Source of the DNA: an archaeon
Lineage (GTDB): Archaea > EX4484-52 > B79-G9
Direction of reading: 5' to 3'
NCBI GenBank assembly: GCA_043813875.1
Contig: JBDRKP010000056.1
Coordinates: 1 to 25,456 of the forward strand
Length of the DNA: 25,456 nt
Shown here: one piece after another, positions 15,001 through 24,000 of the stretch
How positions within the stretch are numbered: the stretch's first letter is position 1
Layout of the letters: each line of letters begins with the position of its first letter
Made by a program: the position numbers

Positions 15001-18000
15001 TTAGAAAACCGCCGATGGGTATTGCGCCGGCGTTCTCTTCGATTATAGAGCCTTTTTTTATGCCTGGCTGGGTTTCTATCCATCTGTCAAGGTAGTATTT
15101 GGCTGTCTTTTCGTCTTTTACACAGGCTCCGATGCCGACGTTGGCTATGTGGCTGCCTTTGGGAAATATCCAGATGTATCCGCGCGGAGCAATACTTGAG
15201 CCCAGATAGATGCATACTTTGTGCGGGTCTTTAAGGTCGATGTTTGCCATCTCATACTGGTAACCGGGCTCTATTGTCCTGAGGGTGTTTTTTGTCTTCA
15301 GGCCTGCGAGTCTTGCAATCTTTGATTCTACTCCTTCTGCAGAGACTATTATCCTGCCGCTGATCTCTTTTTGTTCGCCGTTGTAGATCACTTTTACGCC
15401 ACTTATCATGCCGCCGGTTCTTATCAGGTCGATAACGTCTGCTTTTGTGTATATTTTTGCGCCTGATTTTGCGGCGTCGTATGCAAGAAACTTGTCGAAT
15501 ACTTTTCTTTCGATGATGAAGCCGTGCGGGTGTGCAGCTATTTCAATTGAGTGGCCGTTTGGCGCGAATATCATGCTGGCGTTTATTGTCTGGTTGACAA
15601 ATCGCTCTTTTCCGGTGTAGCCTAATTTGAACAGGTTTTCTGAAAGACCTATGCCTTCTGCGCATCTTTTAGGGGAACCTATCTCTGGCCTTTTCTCAAG
15701 AACCAATACTTTGAGGCCATGTTCTGCGCATCTTCTTGCGGTTATTGTGCCTGCGGGGCCAGCGCCGATTATTATTACGTCGTATTTCTGGTCCATTTTA
15801 TTTCACCTGTTAGATCTCTTTTAATTAATATGTTCTGACGGGGCAGAAACGGGCACTAATACCAGACTCACTATAGTCGTTCTTGTCTTTATTTTTTATT
15901 TTCTTCGAAAATTCAGCAAATCGACGATTTGCCCGGATGGATGAAGGCAAGTTGGTTTGTTGGTAAGTTTTCTTCATTTATTTCTTGCCTTCACTATAGT
16001 TCAAATACTTCACGAAGGTTGCGAGCTTTGGATTCTTTATCAGGATCTTTAGCAGCTTGTGTGTCTTGCCGCATGCAAGGTCAACTATGTCCTGACCGCT
16101 GAATGCTTTTGTAATCATGTTTAAATCGGAATCAGATACCCGACGGTATATATTTACTACTTTTTCGACATCCTGTAATTTCTTCCCTCTTTTTTCCCAC
16201 CATAGGGTGTTGTATGTGTCAAGAGCAGCCTTTGACGTGTCGCATGAATCAATCGCCTGTTTTATTACAGCAGATGCAATCTCGGCGGAAAATGAGGCTT
16301 CTTGGAGGCCGCCGCCATGAAGAGGGTTTACCTGGTGGGCTGCATCGCCCACAGCAAGGAAATTATCTGTTGTCATGACGCTGAGGAAACCTCCTACAGG
16401 GATTGCGCCGCAATTCTCTTCGATTATTGAGCCTTTTTTTATTTCCGGATGAGTATCAATCCAGTTGTCAAGATAATATTTGGCGGTCTTTTCGTGATTG
16501 CTGCCAATACATATGCCTACGTTGGCGATATGAGCACCTTTGGGGAATATCCAGATATATCCGCCGGGAGCAATGCCGGTGCCGACATAGAAATATAGTT
16601 TGTGATGGTCACTGATATCTATGTTTGCCATCTCATACTGATAGCCTGCGTCTAGTGTGTTTTTTGTGTTTCTTGTGGGAAGCCCGGCTATTCTTGAGAT
16701 CTTTGATTCTACTCCGTCTGCGGCAACGAGCATATTGCCATATATCTCTTTCTGTTCTCCGTTATAGTTCACCCTTACGCCGGAGATGATGCCGTCTGTG
16801 CGAATCAAATCGAATGCATCGGCTTTTGTGTAGATTTTCGCCCCTGCTTTTGATGCGTCGTATGCCAGATATTTGTCAAATACCTTGCGCTCGAGGACGT
16901 AGCCGCCCTGGCCGCCGGGCAATTCTATTGAACTGCCGTCGGGGGTGATAAACAGGCCGCCGTCTATTGTCTGTGCAATGAATTGCTCTTTTCCTGTGTA
17001 GCCGAGGCGCTCTAAGTCCTGATGGCCAATGCCTTCTGCACAGCGTTTGGGTGCGCCGATTTCTGGCCTCTTTTCGAGAACGAGCACTTTAAGGCCGTAT
17101 TCTGCGCATTTTTTTGCGGTTATTGTGCCTGCAGGACCTGCGCCTATTATTATTACGTCGTATCTTTGATCCATTCAGTCACACTCTAGAGGTTTGTGGT
17201 AAGTCTCAATGCGCCTACTGGACAGAAGATGGTGCATGTGGCGCATTCTGTGCACTGGTTTTTGTCGACTATGATCATCATGTCTTTTAATGTGAGGGCG
17301 TCTTTCGGGCATATCGAGACGCAGCCGCCGCATGACAAGCATCTGCTTTTGTTGACGTTTAATACCATATTGCATATCCTGTGATGTTATATCCTTATTG
17401 AATGCTTTTGAAGATTAATAAAATTAACTCTATTTTTGTATCATTGGGTGTAGAATGGCATATTTCCGGTAGTCTGTGGATAACTTGTAAGCGGATTATT
17501 CATACGAATGATATATTTATTATATTTCTTTTTTATATTGATGTTATCGGCCAATGAGGCATAAGAAGGAAATGATCCGGTATGAGCCCTAAAGATGACA
17601 ACTGTTTTGGAAGTAAAGGTCCTGAGGTTTCAAAGAAGGTGGCGGATGATTGTGAGCCCACCACTAATATCGCAAACAAGGATCATGCCAAGAAGGATAC
17701 TGTGACCATAAATGAAAAGGAGAAGAGCGTCTTGTTGTCTCTTAATCCAAGGCTCTACCCACAGACTGCCGTGATGAGGGCATCTTACAGGTTCATCGAT
17801 GATTTTGATGTGATTGTTGACGGTGATCCGCTTTCTATTATCTTTGTGACGATAAAGGCAAAGGCGGAGGATGATGCGTCCCTCTCAGAACTTGAGGAAC
17901 TTGCGCACGCTTTTTTTAAGGAGCTTATCCATGCCAATGTCGAGGAGACGCAGGCGCGAAGGTATGCTGATACGAGGAATGCGCTTATCGGCGCGTCGCT

Positions 18001-21000: not shown

Positions 21001-24000
21001 CAATTTCATCGCAAAGATGCCGCATGCTCACATAGCGCTCGAATTCCAGGGCGGCGAGACGCTCCTCTGCTTTGATATGCTGAAGAAATTCCTTCTGCGG
21101 TTCGATGAGAGGATGAAGGCTGCCGGAAAGGTCGTGGACTCGAAGGTCGTCGTGTCCAATCTTACGCTCATGAATGAGGAGATCGCTCTGTTCATCCTGA
21201 AGAACAATATCGGACTTTGCTCTTCTCTTGACGGGCCGAGGGAGCTTCATGATGCGAACAGGAAGTATCCTGACGGGCAGGGGTCTTATGATGCGGTCAT
21301 GAAGGGGATTGATTTTTTTGCAAAAATAGGGCGAAAGATTCCCTTAATGCCGACAATCACAGCGGAGTCTCTTAAGCTTGACCCGAAGGCGATTGTGGAT
21401 GAGTACAGGAAAGCCGGGCTTGATCATATTGTCCTTCGGCCGGTGTGTCCTATCGGGAGGGCGCGCAGCGGGTCGCTTTTGATGGAGCCGAAGGATTATT
21501 TTGAGTTCTGGAAGAAGGCTCTTGATTACATGATCGCTCTTTCTATGGACGGGAATGTGTTCTATGATAAGACTGTACAGGATATGCTGGTTGCGATATT
21601 TACGACCAGGAGGCAGAACATGTGCATGAGGCGGCCGTGCGGCGCCGGCATCAACCATTTCGCGTTCTATCTTGACGGCTCAATCTATGCATGCGATAAC
21701 GGGAAAAAGATGGATGCTTTTAAGCTCGGAAATGTTTGTGAGTCCAGTTATGAAGATGTCTTTCTGAATACATTGCAGCTTCGGGCAAATACAACTGAAT
21801 TCCAGCCGCTTTGCGATACGTGCGTGTATGGCGCTTTCTGCGGGTCGTGCATGTGCAAGTCTTATGCGAGGTCAGGAAAAGTGGTGCCTATGACTCCGAT
21901 GGATTTCGACTGCAAGATCAATAAGATGATGTTTGATCATATTTTCGATAAGATGGATGATCCAACATATCGGACTGTGTTTGAGATGTGGGTACGGCTG
22001 AAAGCATGATTGAAGCGTATTTTTTGAAGGTCATAGCATTCGCTTTGATACTCTGGGTTCTCGGATTGTTCGGGAGACAGTCAATCTTTTTGTATGTATT
22101 GTTCTCTTCTGTCTCTTTTTTTGTGAGGCCGGTCGAAGCTATGCCTGAATTCATGATATCTGCCATCTTTGTGTTTCTTTTTCTGTATGTGATATCCACT
22201 ACTGTCAGGAATTCTTTCAGGAGCGGTTTTTTGAGGTTTTCAAAGCATGCTCTTCTGCAATCCTACAGGAAAAGGAGCGTGGTCTATTCTGTGTTCGTTG
22301 TGTCTTTTCTTATGATGCTTGCTGGCATCGGCGACAGGACTCTGCTTTTTTTAGGGAGCTTTTTTGGGTTTCTTGCCCTCGGGCTTCTTTCCAAAAGCGT
22401 GAGCTTCGCAAGATATGACTGTTACGGGATAATCAATTATAGGAATGCTTTCATTGCTGCTCTTTTCTATGCAGCTTATCATTCCATGTACATGGAGATA
22501 TTTGTGGGCATGATCATCGGGATACTTTATCTTGCGCTTATTGTCATCTCTTCTCTTGTGTATGATACGTTCACTTTCGAGTGCCCTGTCGGGGCGCTTA
22601 AGGAGGGGATGGTGAGCGCGGATTATGTCGTGAAAAAAGACGGCAGGGTGTACAGGAAAGAGCTGAATAATGTCATCACGTTGCAGTCTTTTTTGAGGAG
22701 AAGGATAATGCTACGCGCAGAGGGTGAGGAGATTGTCATCAGTCCTCTTCGGGCGCTGTCAAAGAAGGATATTGATTTTTTGAAGAACATGAAAAAGGGC
22801 AGGGAGTTTGATTCTTTATGCGTGCAGAATACTGTGGATATGAGAGCCTTTGTCGTTGGGGGCATTATCCTTTCTACTGTTGTCTTTTATATTTACCCTT
22901 ATCTTGTCGTTTTTGTATAGGGCGCTGGTCTATTGTGGTCTATCGCGGGCGTATTGAGGCGCCTATAATGTCTTGAATGTATCGGATAATGCTATCGATG
23001 AGATGCTCTGGGGGTTTGTCAGTTCGATCTGATAATAATAATCTGTGGCTGGATCGAGGCCGATGATTGTCAGCTCATGATGTGCTGCCAAGATGGATAT
23101 TGGCTCGCTATCGCCGTACATGATTGTTTTGCCATATCTGATAACACCGGTTGTCGGAACGTCTGTGTCGAAGGTTATCTTTGCGTCATTGGTTCCAGGC
23201 TCTATTGTGACGGATCCGACGATATTCGGCATATCAGTTATCATTAGATTAACTGTTGCCTCGGCAGGGTTTCCTGTGTTGGGTGTGGCTACGGCCTTTA
23301 TCCTATACATGCCTGTGTCAGTCACGGTTATTGCGCCGGTATATGGCGATGATGAGCCCGGCGAGGCTATCGGAGGACCGTAGGTGCCTGTATCAGAGTC
23401 AAACACGAAGAATTCTACTGAGACTATGCCGGATGAATGGCGGGCGTCTACTGTCAATGTTACAGGGTTATCTACTGTTTCGCCGTCAAGCGGGGAGGTT
23501 ATGTTTATGAATGGATCTGATGTGTCTATACCGGCGATGAATGTGTATTCGGATGATGTGACTGTCTCTGTGCCGTCGCTCGATTCGACGATTATGTAGT
23601 AGTCCTGTTCCGCAATCAGGCCGCCGATTCCGATGCTGTGTGCAAGAAGCTCTGTGGGGTCGGTGATGTCCGTGTACGGGCCGCCGGCTGTCGTGCTGTA
23701 TTTCAGCGTCGAGTCTGAGAGCCTGTTTGTTGTCCATTGGATTGTTACGGATGTTCCTGAAATAGATGCGGTCGGGCCGGATGTTATCTCGAACGGGCCT
23801 GAAAGTGCAAGCGATGGGGGGATTGTACCGTAAGGATTGTTGCATGATGAGCCGTGAGTGTCGCAGAAATGGGTGGCACCGGGTGGGCCGCAGCAGTTCA
23901 TGTCGACGATGGGCACGGTGACATAGAATCTGAACTTGAGCTTTTGCCAGTTGTTTGCCTCTGGATTATATATCTTGTTCCTGTCGTCTGTTATAGTCAC

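Follow-up and report, generated by a model that had tools for sequence, protein, structure and literature searches.

A rare HXS-related gene set of DPANN archaea and its candidate substrate, a membrane-targeted tryptophan-rich peptide

Genes of the locus

The window, i.e., the whole stretch of DNA analysed here, corresponds to the complete contig C56 (25,456 bases) of a small symbiotic-type archaeon of the DPANN group. Between positions 17582 and 22920, genes for HxsD-, HxsC- and HxsB-like proteins surround a small gene that encodes a Trp-rich protein of 99 residues (Table 1), and the surroundings consist of housekeeping genes and a pilin-like operon. Re-reading of the window bore out the open reading frames and coordinates given in the genome-wide survey's note. 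For the small gene, which stops at 19551, the alternative starts are 19240 and 19252 (+); the 99 residues are counted from the start that is kept in its relatives.

Table 1. Position of the genes and features discussed in the text
Feature	Position	Strand	Basis
Ferredoxin	17186-17368	-	ORF reading
HxsD-like small protein, 171 aa	17582..18097	+	TIGR03976
U32-like TIM-barrel protein with Cys motifs; candidate accessory tailoring protein, non-core	18114..19172	-	PF01136
Precursor, 99 aa	19252..19551	+	no family; alignments of relatives
Hydrophobic helix of the precursor, residues 25-43 GVVNSLVLLGSIGALLAVV	19324..19380	+	hydropathy, G25 invariance
Cys52 codon of the precursor	19405..19407	+	invariant in 31/31 sequences
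Trp-repeat core of the precursor, W75-N94 WKNHCWNWSWCWSWGWGWDN	19474..19533	+	direct reading
HxsC-like radical SAM enzyme, 320 aa	19561..20523	+	TIGR03977, PF04055
HxsB-like radical SAM/SPASM enzyme, 477 aa	20576..22009	+	TIGR03978
Polytopic membrane protein, Arc_PepC domain, core component	21988..22920	+	PF06819
Large surface protein, 5' end lost at the contig end, conserved neighbour	22963..25455	-	Big_7 and fn3-like domains (Pfam scan)

In the NCBIfam scan the HXS families are the best full-length matches of the three maturation proteins, with a wide gap in score to the families ranked next; the values reported by the survey were reproduced exactly, all of them under the family cut-offs. 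The HxsB-like enzyme reaches 322.4 bits with TIGR03978 (E 4.4e-96; cut-off 370) over profile positions 7-466 of 466, and its runner-up family is PapB with 138.6 bits. Residues C113, C117 and C120 and eight C-terminal cysteines are invariant in 13 orthologues, the anSME structure 4k37 is matched with an E value of 4.7e-22, and the SPASM match in Pfam scores 21.3 bits for a cut-off of 21.5. The HxsC-like gene starts 10 nt after the stop codon of the small gene; its product matches TIGR03977 (143.5 bits, E 6e-42; cut-off 267.9) as well as PF04055, and its sequence shows the Cys motifs C33-x3-C37-x2-C40 and, at the C-terminus, C-x2-C-x5-C. The HxsD-like protein, which presumably assists the HxsC-like enzyme as a partner or chaperone, covers positions 3-88 of the 90 of TIGR03976 (37.1 bits, E 3.1e-9; cut-off 50) and keeps the blocks L-x-P-x-L-Y and F-x-x-E-L...E-E...R in ten orthologues; tblastn did not find its gene in loci L040 and L041.

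Two other genes had been counted as members of the cluster. The ferredoxin gene belongs instead to the neighbouring geranylgeranyl-reductase operon, as judged from its spacing (11 nt upstream of the reductase gene), its identical orientation and the fact that the pair travels together in relatives; a ferredoxin encoded in the same locus is the known reductant of reductases of this sort (PMC10821996). The U32 peptidase turned out to be a lineage-specific accessory and not a core member, given that its gene is present only in the five loci of the W-x-W style described below and in one distant locus (L046). This protein shows a partial match to PF01136 (E 2.6e-9) and a weak one to 5d88, a structure of the U32 'collagenase family' (E 0.01), and has conserved cysteines in the motifs NEGC-x3-C and, C-terminally, C-x3-C-x2-C-x2-C.

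The gene for the membrane protein follows or overlaps the HxsB gene in relatives across families, and here it likely starts at the ATG at 22006, overlapping the HxsB stop codon (ATGA). Arc_PepC (PF06819; 38.3 bits, E 1.7e-9) is the sole domain found; the Pfam scan gave no match to PF01478, and no invariant Asp was seen in an alignment of seven orthologues. It is therefore probably not a protease, despite the earlier label of prepilin-peptidase-like protein, but it does count among the core components. Its look-alikes in the Atlas, whose record of the protein begins at residue 7, are archaeal A24/Arc_PepC clusters with feature scores of 0.80-0.87, which the tool grades as leads only, and a TM of 0.63. 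A true A24 peptidase and T4F ATPases are encoded elsewhere in the genome, and no assembly ATPase lies close to the locus.

Wherever the contig extends far enough, which is the case for 16 loci, the large surface protein adjoins the cluster. Its full-length orthologues start with a class-III (type-IV-pilin-like) signal peptide; one of them (L053:48-3356(-)) has 53 extra N-terminal residues that read MLHRKIKKG/DITALISVVILIV... In its AF2 model (pLDDT 69) a helix spans residues 5-80 and is followed by beta domains. Like two to three smaller neighbours, the large protein shows K-G or K-A and then a hydrophobic helix at the N-terminus. It is also present in G002 (81% complete) and G027 (89% complete), where HxsB was not found with the query used, and is thus not strictly dependent on the system.

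The small tryptophan-rich protein and its relatives

The small protein, referred to here as the precursor, has no family match in either the NCBIfam or the Pfam scan. It is composed of a basic N-region (computed net charge +5 for residues 1-24), a membrane helix (mean Kyte-Doolittle hydropathy of 2.2 over 19 residues), a linker with an invariant Cys and the Trp-repeat core; the computed net charge of residues 45-99 is -8. The helix opens with the invariant Gly25 and ends before a V-E-A site that resembles A-x-A. The core contains W-K-N-H-C-W-N-W-S-W-C-W-S-W-G-W-G-W-D-N and the tail reads ...SRWKNHCWNWSWCWSWGWGWDNSSSSE; behind the last Trp of the run there are thus seven further residues, which the survey omitted. 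Within the core, a W-x-W ladder lies between two W-x-N motifs. Among 4,564 ATG-started six-frame ORFs of at least 60 aa from the whole genome (Trp content 0.93%), the precursor is alone in having 8 Trp in 30 residues, the runner-up having 6; this density is therefore not due to chance.

A precursor search covering 61 genomes, 42 of them from the order, matched 13 of the 42, which is the count given by the survey. One of these matches (G029:C12, E 0.0039) was rejected as spurious because it lacks any Hxs-like gene next to it, and seven genomes that the query had missed (G005, G017, G020, G024, G026, G029 and G031) were added through their HxsB-like loci. The order HxsD-(U32)-precursor-HxsC-HxsB had been described as conserved, and indeed the precursor lies between the HxsD-like and the HxsC/HxsB-like genes in 14 of the 14 real loci of that search; it is also directly upstream of HxsC in seven further loci from the HxsB search (L038-L044) and in L050. 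In contrast, the HxsB-like loci L045-L049 have no recognisable Trp precursor. These counts overstate independence, since the genomes are related to one another and some of the contigs are nearly identical (L019=L020, L022=L023=L024, L043~L050). The rarity of the family is confirmed by a profile search against 1.84 billion representatives, which found 14 clusters of 92-162 aa, as compared to nine in the earlier single-sequence search. Gene content, gene order, conservation, motifs and rarity are what is directly observed for this system.

Across the order, the precursors have in common a basic N-terminus, a membrane helix with a Gly ahead of it and a Cys behind it, and repeats of W-x-(N/D), with up to 13 Trp in 45 residues. 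Only G25 and C52 are invariant in an alignment of 31 sequences; the motif W-x-(N/D)-H-C-W, which is invariant in 12 close relatives, is not family-wide. At least one W-x-[ND] is present in all 33 sequences listed for the family, and the repeats come in two styles, overlapping W-x-W and W-W-D-H. The survey's note took the Trp-X-Trp ladder as the target of cross-linking; in the enzyme tree, the enzymes that go with this ladder fall into a single clade (support 100/100), and the W-x-W ladder is one derived, monophyletic style of a family whose general motif is W-x-(N/D). The style found in the window holds just two such motifs. The enzyme clades follow the precursor style, and in G004 as well as in G012 a W-x-W system occurs alongside a WWDH one. 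The small Trp-rich gene likely encodes the substrate of the HxsB- and HxsC-like enzymes.

Proposed function and competing explanations

Judged from sequence comparisons, this conserved gene set probably carries out the chemical cross-linking of a membrane-targeted, Trp-packed peptide. The explanation that we favour, with somewhat better than even confidence, is that it represents a rare system of DPANN archaea, distantly related to bacterial HXS, which matures and exports a Trp peptide that is cross-linked and exposed at the surface. The substrate would be of a new kind, i.e., a peptide of about 100 residues with a basic N-region, a Gly followed by a membrane helix, a short acidic linker with a Cys, and a C-terminal Trp-repeat core. 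Homology to HxsB and HxsC does not in itself predict Trp cross-links, since the only modification mapped in bacterial HXS is a change of +8 Da on SHRSS and not a cyclophane (PMC13128918). The steps that follow, from the modification itself and its bond type to the topology and a tie to the pilin-like protein, are inferred. Radical cross-links with the Trp repeats at their centre would be formed in the cytoplasm by the HxsB-like SPASM enzyme and by the HxsC-like one, the latter together with its HxsD-like partner, as has been shown for bacterial HxsC and HxsD. Triceptide-type cyclophanes of three residues on W-x-(N/D) are the most likely products, to which the style of the window may add daropeptide-like W-x-W links, and the U32-like Fe-S protein may introduce another modification in the W-x-W lineage. 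The peptide would then be inserted with the N-terminus in and the C-terminus out, or exported, aided by the FlaK-like membrane protein that lacks a conserved Asp, and the rigid Trp core would end at the cell surface beside the giant pilin-like protein encoded next door.

It is unlikely that the product is instead released as an antimicrobial or signalling RiPP of the darobactin or triceptide kind, with a Sec-type leader cut at the A-x-A-like site to free a cross-linked Trp peptide of about 50 residues. Small residues occupy positions -3 and -1 after the helix in most of the 31 aligned sequences (VEA, VNA, ASA, AHA, AEA; judged by eye, uncounted), the WNWS of the core resembles darobactin, and motifs of the triceptide type are present. 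Nevertheless, the n-region of about 24 residues is unusually long, the helix of 19 residues has the length of a transmembrane segment, the NCBIfam and Pfam scans detected no usual RiPP transporter or leader protease in the locus, the carrier genomes are very small (about 0.6-1.6 Mb, one bin 2.2 Mb), and constant pilin-like and FlaK-like partners would not be expected for a diffusible product.

These same partners bring to mind another possibility, considered improbable, in which the peptide is a small pilin-like subunit cut after Gly25, whose helix packs in a fibre similar to a type IV filament that the Trp core decorates together with the giant pilin-like protein. The invariant Gly before the helix, the N-termini of the neighbouring proteins, the resemblance of the membrane protein to archaeal prepilin peptidases, and the A24 peptidase and T4F ATPases encoded elsewhere are all in agreement with this. 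In the class-III signal motif (FlaFind pattern) Lys or Arg precedes the Gly; in the precursors this residue is Thr (or Glu/Asp). The length of the leader (about 24 aa), the missing conserved Asp of the membrane protein and the distance to any assembly ATPase also argue against a subunit.

According to the survey's note, the cross-linked peptide would correspond in archaea to HxsA, acting at the surface as an effector that keeps viral DNA from entering. We regard this as quite doubtful, even though all three maturation proteins are homologous to those of HXS, whose antiphage activity has been demonstrated by experiment and whose exported effector is anchored in the envelope (PMC13128918), and exposure on the outside is predicted for the archaeal peptide, too. 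HxsA was proposed to bind DNA electrostatically through its basic His-x-Ser repeats, whereas the archaeal core is acidic or neutral and has no H-x-S; moreover, 99.7% of the HXS systems are found in Pseudomonadota. PADLOC returned only generic viperin-type radical-SAM matches, and the context is not that of a defence island. Within the genus, the divergence of the Hxs genes resembles that of flanking housekeeping genes (identities with L018 of 63% for HxsB, 71% for GGR and 78% for UPPS), so that vertical descent fits better than a mobile defence cassette. From this genomic context, a role at the cell surface or in host contact looks more likely than antiviral defence.

Trp favours membrane interfaces, and loci L045-L049 indicate that the enzymes can have other substrates; still, there is little to recommend the idea that the Trp tail is an unmodified interface or glycan-binding anchor and that the enzymes act elsewhere, e.g., on the large surface protein or the HxsD-like protein, when the small gene keeps the same place, with HxsD and HxsC on either side, in all Trp-type loci, the enzyme clades track the precursor style and the repeats fit known radical-SAM cross-link motifs.

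Comparison with known systems

The favoured maturation and export system can be compared with several characterised ones. The membrane protein shares with archaeal A24 prepilin peptidases (FlaK/PibD; PF01478 and PF06819) the Arc_PepC domain and a similar predicted architecture, and its length (310 aa) is close to that of the true A24 enzyme of this genome (298 aa). Only the Arc_PepC part of the two proteins aligns, and PF01478 and the invariant Asp are features of the peptidases that it lacks.

The claim that this would be the first radical-SAM peptide of archaea was too wide, since a SPASM radical SAM enzyme of Methanococcus voltae, CrpC, was reported to form ranthionine links on the Cys-rich CrpA (PMC13692751). 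As is proposed for the present locus, an archaeal radical SAM/SPASM enzyme there modifies a genetically adjacent ribosomal product; however, CrpC makes thioethers on a Cys-rich protein, belongs to another family and, in the system as described, has no HxsC or HxsD partner and no Trp repeats.

WNWS, given by the survey as the start of the darobactin core, does open the DarA core WNWSKSF and is found inside the core of the window. A single radical SAM/SPASM enzyme, DarE, forms both the Trp-Trp ether and the Trp-Lys C-C link (PMC9055067). In contrast to daropeptide enzymes, the HxsB-like enzyme scores 111.8 bits with DynA (E 3.4e-32; cut-off 450) and 73.8 bits with DarW (E 1.2e-20; cut-off 650), and the motif is confined to the W-x-W style. 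Being archaea, these organisms presumably have neither an outer membrane nor the BamA target.

The defining feature of triceptides is an aromatic-to-C-beta link on Omega1-X2-X3 (PMC11499958). Their systems (XncB, OscB/GrrM, MscB, HaaB, YhhB, HtkB) likewise combine a SPASM enzyme with a precursor of repeated aromatic-X-X motifs, and W-x-N and W-x-D, carried by the archaeal precursors as W-x-(N/D), are proven substrates of OscB and XncB: the bond formed by OscB runs from Trp-C7 to C-beta of Asn/Asp, that formed by XncB from Trp-C6 to C-beta of Arg/Asn (PMC11002830). The archaeal SPASM enzyme is not a member of these families (74 bits with TIGR04261, cut-off 310; 58.2 with NF041707, cut-off 445); its system has in addition a second radical SAM enzyme and HxsD, and the precursor is membrane-targeted and far richer in Trp, with overlapping W-x-W and W-W-D-H repeats.

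The antiphage system HXS comprises HxsA-D (TIGR03976-03979; Li et al., Nat Commun 2026, PMC13128918), and its HxsA has a signal peptide and requires HxsBCD for a non-canonical N-terminal cleavage and for export (PMC13128918). It differs from the archaeal system in its hosts (Pseudomonadota) and its gene order (D-B-C-A versus D-(U32)-precursor-C-B); the archaeal proteins all score under the HXS family cut-offs, their substrate, a Trp-repeat peptide of 99 residues that includes a membrane helix, has neither His-x-Ser repeats nor a peptidoglycan-binding domain, and the locus adds a conserved FlaK-like membrane protein and the pilin-like neighbour. Nevertheless, both systems have in common two radical SAM enzymes, one of them of the SPASM type, a small HxsD protein, and a substrate with an N-terminal targeting signal, short repeats and, according to what is described for HXS (PMC13128918) and predicted here, a destination in the cell envelope.

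A probable Trp-rich precursor within an Hxs-like gene cluster

The system encoded in the window is a rare, order-wide relative of the bacterial HXS systems, with a probable substrate of a new class and two conserved companions that are likewise new. Its gene set and NCBIfam scores, taken from the genome-wide survey's note, were reproduced to the decimal with an ORF list and family scans, and the pairing of enzymes with a substrate and their kinship with HXS, both proposed there, are upheld as well. The features discussed here are collected in the table, in which L numbers mark related loci that were fetched; G numbers are used below for the searched genomes.

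Features of the window and of related loci (positions in the window, or in the locus that is named)
Feature	Position	Strand	Match or remark
Prolyl-tRNA synthetase	3628-5769	-	713 aa
Ferredoxin (60 aa), two tandem geranylgeranyl-reductase paralogues, UPP synthase	13511-17368	-	operon-like row
HxsD-like	17582-18097	+	TIGR03976, 37.1 bits
U32-like	18114-19172	- (opposite strand)	PF01136, partial match
Precursor small gene	19240/19252-19551	+	ATG 19252 is the start kept in relatives; 99 aa
HxsC-like	19561-20523	+	TIGR03977, 143.5 bits
HxsB-like	20576-22009	+	TIGR03978, 322.4 bits, full-length
Polytopic membrane protein	21988-22920	+	Arc_PepC, 38.3 bits
Pilin-like large surface protein	22963-25455	-	830-aa ORF, cut by contig end
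Fused double HxsC-like	L038:6777-8612		
Fused double HxsC-like	L040:8045-9811		
Fused double HxsC-like	L041:3892-5655		
Fused double HxsC-like	L042:391-2154		
Small pilin-like gene	L053:3376-4026	-	upstream of large surface protein
Small pilin-like gene	L054:2387-3052	-	upstream of large surface protein

Regions were fetched around every precursor match, and the proteins of the window were mapped onto each. The HxsD-like, precursor, HxsC-like and HxsB-like genes keep their order on one strand in 14 regions, as far as the contigs reach; since L019 and L020 are near-copies, as are L022, L023 and L024, the number of independent loci is below 14. An extra HxsC-like gene lies ahead of the precursor in L025 and L028. 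A precursor match on contig C12 of genome G029 (E 0.0039) lacks Hxs-like genes nearby and was discarded as spurious. When loci of G041 and G004 are compared in pairs (L019 with L020, L022 with L023), their precursors are identical, and in L022/L023 HxsB is identical too; G041, which is 68% complete with 3% contamination, is assigned to another family than G004, and this identity points either to contigs binned in error or to a transfer that took place very recently. On G041:C64 the membrane-protein gene is broken by stop codons.

The tail of the precursor reads SRWKNHCWNWSWCWSWGWGWDNSSSSE. Among 4,564 six-frame ORFs of at least 60 aa from the 1.64-Mb genome, in which Trp accounts for 0.93% of residues, the precursor alone reaches 8 Trp in a 30-residue window, the next best having 6. 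Family scans matched it to no NCBIfam or Pfam family. In an alignment of 31 sequences only Gly25 and Cys52 are invariant, and M1, L30, W75, W82 and W86 are nearly so. A 19-residue hydrophobic helix follows Gly25 (mean hydropathy of residues 25-43, 2.2), and the net charge is +5 over the 24 residues before it and -8 over residues 45-99, which fits an N-in/C-out orientation. Small residues occupy positions -3 and -1 at the end of the helix (VEA, ASA and AHA in the same alignment), so that a cut by signal peptidase, possible on these residues, would free a peptide of about 50 aa beginning just ahead of Cys52. Class-III (FlaFind) signals consist of a short basic leader, a [K/R]-[G/A] cleavage site and some 20 hydrophobic residues; Gly25 ahead of the helix recalls such a signal, but the residue before it, position -2, is not basic (Thr, Glu or Asp), and the leader has about 24 aa.

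The Trp repeats come in three styles: period 2 (W-x-W-x-W), found in the genus of the window and in G012; period 5 (W-W-D-H-x); and period 3 (W-x-(N/D/E)), of which WGNWSDWTNSWNNWSDWTNWSDWSDW is an instance. The peptide of the window contains WKN, WDN and six overlapping W-x-W motifs. At least one W-x-[ND] is present in all 33 listed family sequences, with up to 12 per peptide, and the first core Trp is nearly always followed by x-N/D. The H-C-W motif, stressed in the note, is kept in close relatives; beyond them, four sequences have Ser, Tyr or His between the His and the Trp, and the period-3 style lacks the motif.

Hxs-like enzymes, probable chemistry and distribution

TIGR03978 is by far the best match of the HxsB-like protein (E 4.4e-96, positions 7-466 of 466), with a score under the cut-off of 370; the next-best family is PapB, with 138.6 bits. 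Likewise, the HxsC-like (E 6e-42) and HxsD-like proteins do not reach the HXS equivalog cut-offs of 267.9 and 50 bits, respectively. The HxsB-like protein is a radical SAM enzyme with a SPASM domain (PF04055, 37.7 bits; PF13186, 21.3 bits, just under the cut-off of 21.5), its CX3CX2C motif and eight C-terminal Cys are invariant in 13 orthologues, and it aligns to anSME 4k37 over residues 106-460 (355 residues, E 4.7e-22). It does not belong to the characterised 3-CyFE families GrrM/OscB (TIGR04261, 74 bits, cut-off 310) and YhhB (NF041707, 58.2 bits, cut-off 445), nor is it of the DarE type (NF041300 DarW, 73.8 bits, cut-off 650; NF041298 DynA, 111.8 bits, cut-off 450). In 10 orthologues the HxsD-like protein shows the blocks L-x-P-x-L-Y and F-x-x-E-L...E-E...R, analogous to the HxsD motifs LYW and LLNDYxLRE (PMC13128918).

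Triceptides are made by SPASM radical SAM enzymes, which link an aromatic residue to a C-beta within Omega1-X2-X3 (PMC11499958), and such aromatic-X-X motifs are present in the precursor. OscB joins Trp-C7 to the C-beta of Asn or Asp, and XncB joins Trp-C6 to that of Arg or Asn (PMC11002830), which establishes W-x-(N/D) as a motif that is cross-linked. In the darobactin core WNWSKSF, the W-x-W bears a Trp-Trp ether made by DarE (PMC9055067). For the bacterial HXS systems, the sole mapped modification is +8 Da on SHRSS (PMC13128918), so that homology to HXS by itself predicts no cyclophane.

In a tree of HxsB-like enzymes, from which duplicates (L019, L024 and L039) and truncated proteins (L016, L021, L025 and L026) were left out, the period-2 enzymes form one clade (100/100), as do two of the period-3 groups, and the WWDH enzymes fall into three lines with an unresolved backbone. 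G004 and G012 each have one period-2 and one WWDH system. The tree thus indicates that the W-x-W ladder is a derived style, which narrows the earlier description of it as a general feature, and that the enzymes diverged along with their precursors.

Several variations were seen among the Hxs-like proteins. The HxsD-like C-terminus has a Lys-rich tail and one to three closing Cys in 7 of the 10 aligned sequences (KKSNSC, DNCGSC, DKCGCC, KAKTC and KNCK are examples), and that of L028 has a longer, Cys-rich extension. Two HxsC-like domains are fused in one protein of 587-611 aa in the period-3 styles; tblastn found no HxsD-like gene in the fetched regions of L040 and L041. Five more distant HxsB-like loci (L045-L049, from G030, G018, G013, G049 and G015) have no Trp-repeat gene, and most of them carry tandem HxsD-like paralogues of 137-180 aa and 85-88 aa, one being found in L048. 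The longer paralogue ends in a conserved acidic stretch with P-W (KPWTPQEK, KPWDEQKG, TPWTPPKK) and might itself be the substrate.

The host is a DPANN-type archaeon. The related contigs are from metagenome-assembled genomes labelled Candidatus Nanohalarchaeota, Aenigmatarchaeota or Bathyarchaeota. The genomes of the relatives measure approx. 0.6-1.6 Mb (one bin has 2.2 Mb), and the genes that flank the system are archaeal lipid genes. The HxsB-like query had matches in 29 of 61 genomes and the precursor query in 13. Inspection of 14 further regions revealed Trp-repeat genes directly upstream of HxsC in L038/L039, L040-L042 and L043/L044/L050; once the regions found with HxsB are included, 19 of the order's 42 genomes have a Trp-repeat gene. 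A precursor profile retrieved only 14 clusters from 1.84 billion representative proteins. Matching sequencing runs included none of RNA; in three DNA runs from groundwater metagenomes (two studies), a fraction of 0.06-0.31 of the sampled words was present, a value with no bearing on expression or habitat.

Companion and neighbouring genes

The polytopic membrane protein is a core part of the system. Its gene lies directly after HxsB, and its likely ATG (22006) overlaps the HxsB stop codon (ATGA); it recurs in this position across families, is divergently placed in L022/L023, and is found in 22 of the 61 genomes. The score against PF06819 (Arc_PepC) exceeds the cut-off of 23.4 bits, and the Pfam scan gave no match to PF01478. 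In A24 peptidases this catalytic domain carries two conserved Asp, the second within GxGD. An alignment of seven orthologues of the membrane protein contains no invariant Asp, and in an hhalign comparison with the true A24 peptidase of the genome (G000:C1, 298 aa) the Arc_PepC part alone aligns; for these reasons its reading as an active prepilin peptidase was rejected. The nearest look-alikes in the ESM Atlas are archaeal A24/Arc_PepC clusters (feature scores 0.80-0.87, to be taken as leads only; TM 0.63). Structural searches with the model (pLDDT 72) were uninformative: Foldseek found nothing in the PDB at E<=0.001, and a wide VIA-align search returned helical-bundle look-alikes (best Z 7.6), with FlaK 3s0x at rank 45 (Z 5.5). 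We take it for a FlaK-like scaffold that would have lost its protease residues and might assist in docking or export.

The U32-like gene is confined to 5 loci of the W-x-W style and a single distant one, L046, whose homologue is 32% identical and shares the motifs NEGC-x3-C and C-terminal C-x3-C-x2-C-x2-C. U32 proteins include the O2-independent hydroxylases UbiU/V, RlhA and TrhP (PMC10990095). The Cys motifs suggest that the U32-like protein would bind Fe-S clusters, as U32 hydroxylases do, and given both the motifs and these known enzymes, an Fe-S tailoring enzyme would be at least as likely as a peptidase. The designation of the U32 and prepilin-peptidase-like proteins as peptidases was wrong or too wide.

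The ferredoxin, which had also been counted among the components, belongs to a lipid operon. In the window a geranylgeranyl reductase starts 11 nt downstream of it, on the same strand; among relatives the ferredoxin is followed by reductase and UPP synthase wherever the contig allows (L018 and L021) and is missing from the more distant loci. On these grounds it was excluded from the system. A locus-encoded ferredoxin is the in vivo reductant of the geranylgeranyl reductase of M. acetivorans (PMC10821996). The two reductase paralogues of the window (398 and 393 aa) match best to models of digeranylgeranylglycerophospholipid reductase, far below the cut-offs, and in L018 and L021 only one reductase lies between ferredoxin and UPP synthase.

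On the other side of the membrane-protein gene, the pilin-like ORF is cut at its 5' end, because the contig has the same 25,456 bases as the window. A full orthologue has 53 more residues and starts with MLHRKIKKG/DITALISVVILIVALVI. Additional genes ahead of it encode a similar beginning, with K-A or K-G and then a hydrophobic stretch, and N-termini of this kind recur in more distant orthologues. In the AlphaFold model of the G005 orthologue (pLDDT 69), the N-terminus forms a helix of 80 residues, after which come beta domains. With this model Foldseek found nothing in the PDB at E<=0.001, the weak rows being beta-sandwiches (Cry toxin domains, viral coats and lectins), and the Atlas held no usable match for the first 640 residues of the protein. 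The pilin-like protein adjoins the Hxs-like genes in 16 of the 16 loci whose contigs reach far enough (the window, L019, L020, L022, L023, L027, L028, L039, L040-L044 and L050-L052; eight others end too early), with weak similarity in L043, L044 and L050 (E 1e-7 to 1e-10). It is present in 24 of the 61 genomes, and since G002 (81% complete) and G027 (89% complete) have it and gave no match to the HxsB query used, it is probably able to occur on its own. T4F ATPases and a true A24 peptidase are encoded elsewhere in the genome. In L053 and L054 the small pilin-like gene listed in the table has at its end a module dense in Cys (..CVPQNACSLYGGICVTKFMCGPTRCCCKGLPV), which both genomes conserve and which looks like a small disulfide-knot domain.

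The left flank of the window contains housekeeping genes (ProRS, glutamine synthetase, GMP synthase, KsgA and a TtuA-like gene). The prolyl-tRNA synthetase has an N-terminal B3/4 domain (PF03483) fused ahead of its class II core; this domain is otherwise known from PheRS beta, and here it may be an editing or tRNA-binding addition.

Possible role and comparison with the HXS systems

An antiviral role had been proposed by analogy with HXS, and nothing found points to one. PADLOC gave no specific match, only generic viperin-type ones to both radical SAM enzymes, and the flank is of the housekeeping kind. Compared with the same-genus locus L018, the system genes show identities (HxsB 63%, HxsC 58%, HxsD 72%) that resemble those of the flanking genes (geranylgeranyl reductase 71%, UPP synthase 78%). 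In addition, DNA binding has been proposed for HxsA by way of its basic HxS repeats (PMC13128918), and the archaeal core is acidic.

DPANN archaea are thought to live attached to hosts. A different reading, which we consider rather improbable and advance only tentatively, is that a rigid poly-Trp "claw", stapled by the radical SAM enzymes and anchored in the membrane or carried in a fibre resembling a type IV filament, would serve together with the pilin-like protein in contact with the host. If this were so, the HXS machinery would be an ancient module that modifies and exports envelope proteins, put to use against phages in bacteria and for cell-cell attachment in archaea; the precursor would be the first archaeal component of a surface structure to be modified by radical SAM enzymes, and its overlapping Trp cyclophanes would make it a new class of peptide. 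More generally, the conserved association of radical-SAM maturation genes with a degenerate prepilin-peptidase-like protein and a giant pilin-like surface protein suggests a surface structure that is as yet unstudied.

Cross-linking of precursors that contain 8-13 Trp in overlapping repeats (W-x-W, W-W-D-H or W-x-N/D) would yield poly-cyclophanes with dense stapling, of which the literature searches returned no description. These searches, which did not extend to the supplements of the HXS paper, returned no archaeal HXS-like system, no such Trp-repeat precursors and no radical SAM genes beside archaeal pilin operons; a survey of T4F systems (PMC13705601) makes no mention of "radical SAM". The earlier claim of an archaeal first is too wide, as the comparison with CrpC, an archaeal SPASM radical SAM enzyme, shows (PMC13692751).

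Only in 2026 was HXS shown to be a defence system, one in which an envelope effector is matured (PMC13128918), and the chemistry involved has yet to be solved. The distant branch in archaea, whose probable substrate is very different and very suggestive, offers a second, independent handle on the action of HxsB, HxsC and HxsD. In the bacterial system HxsC binds HxsD, and HxsA, which has a signal peptide, depends on HxsB, HxsC and HxsD both for its export and for cleavage at a non-canonical N-terminal site (PMC13128918). The effector HxsA carries His-Xaa-Ser repeats and a peptidoglycan-binding domain, whereas the archaeal precursor has neither; read directly, its sequence contains two His and no H-x-S. 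The gene order differs too, being HxsD-HxsB-HxsC-HxsA in 99.6% of the HXS systems (PMC13128918) and HxsD-(U32)-precursor-HxsC-HxsB in the window.
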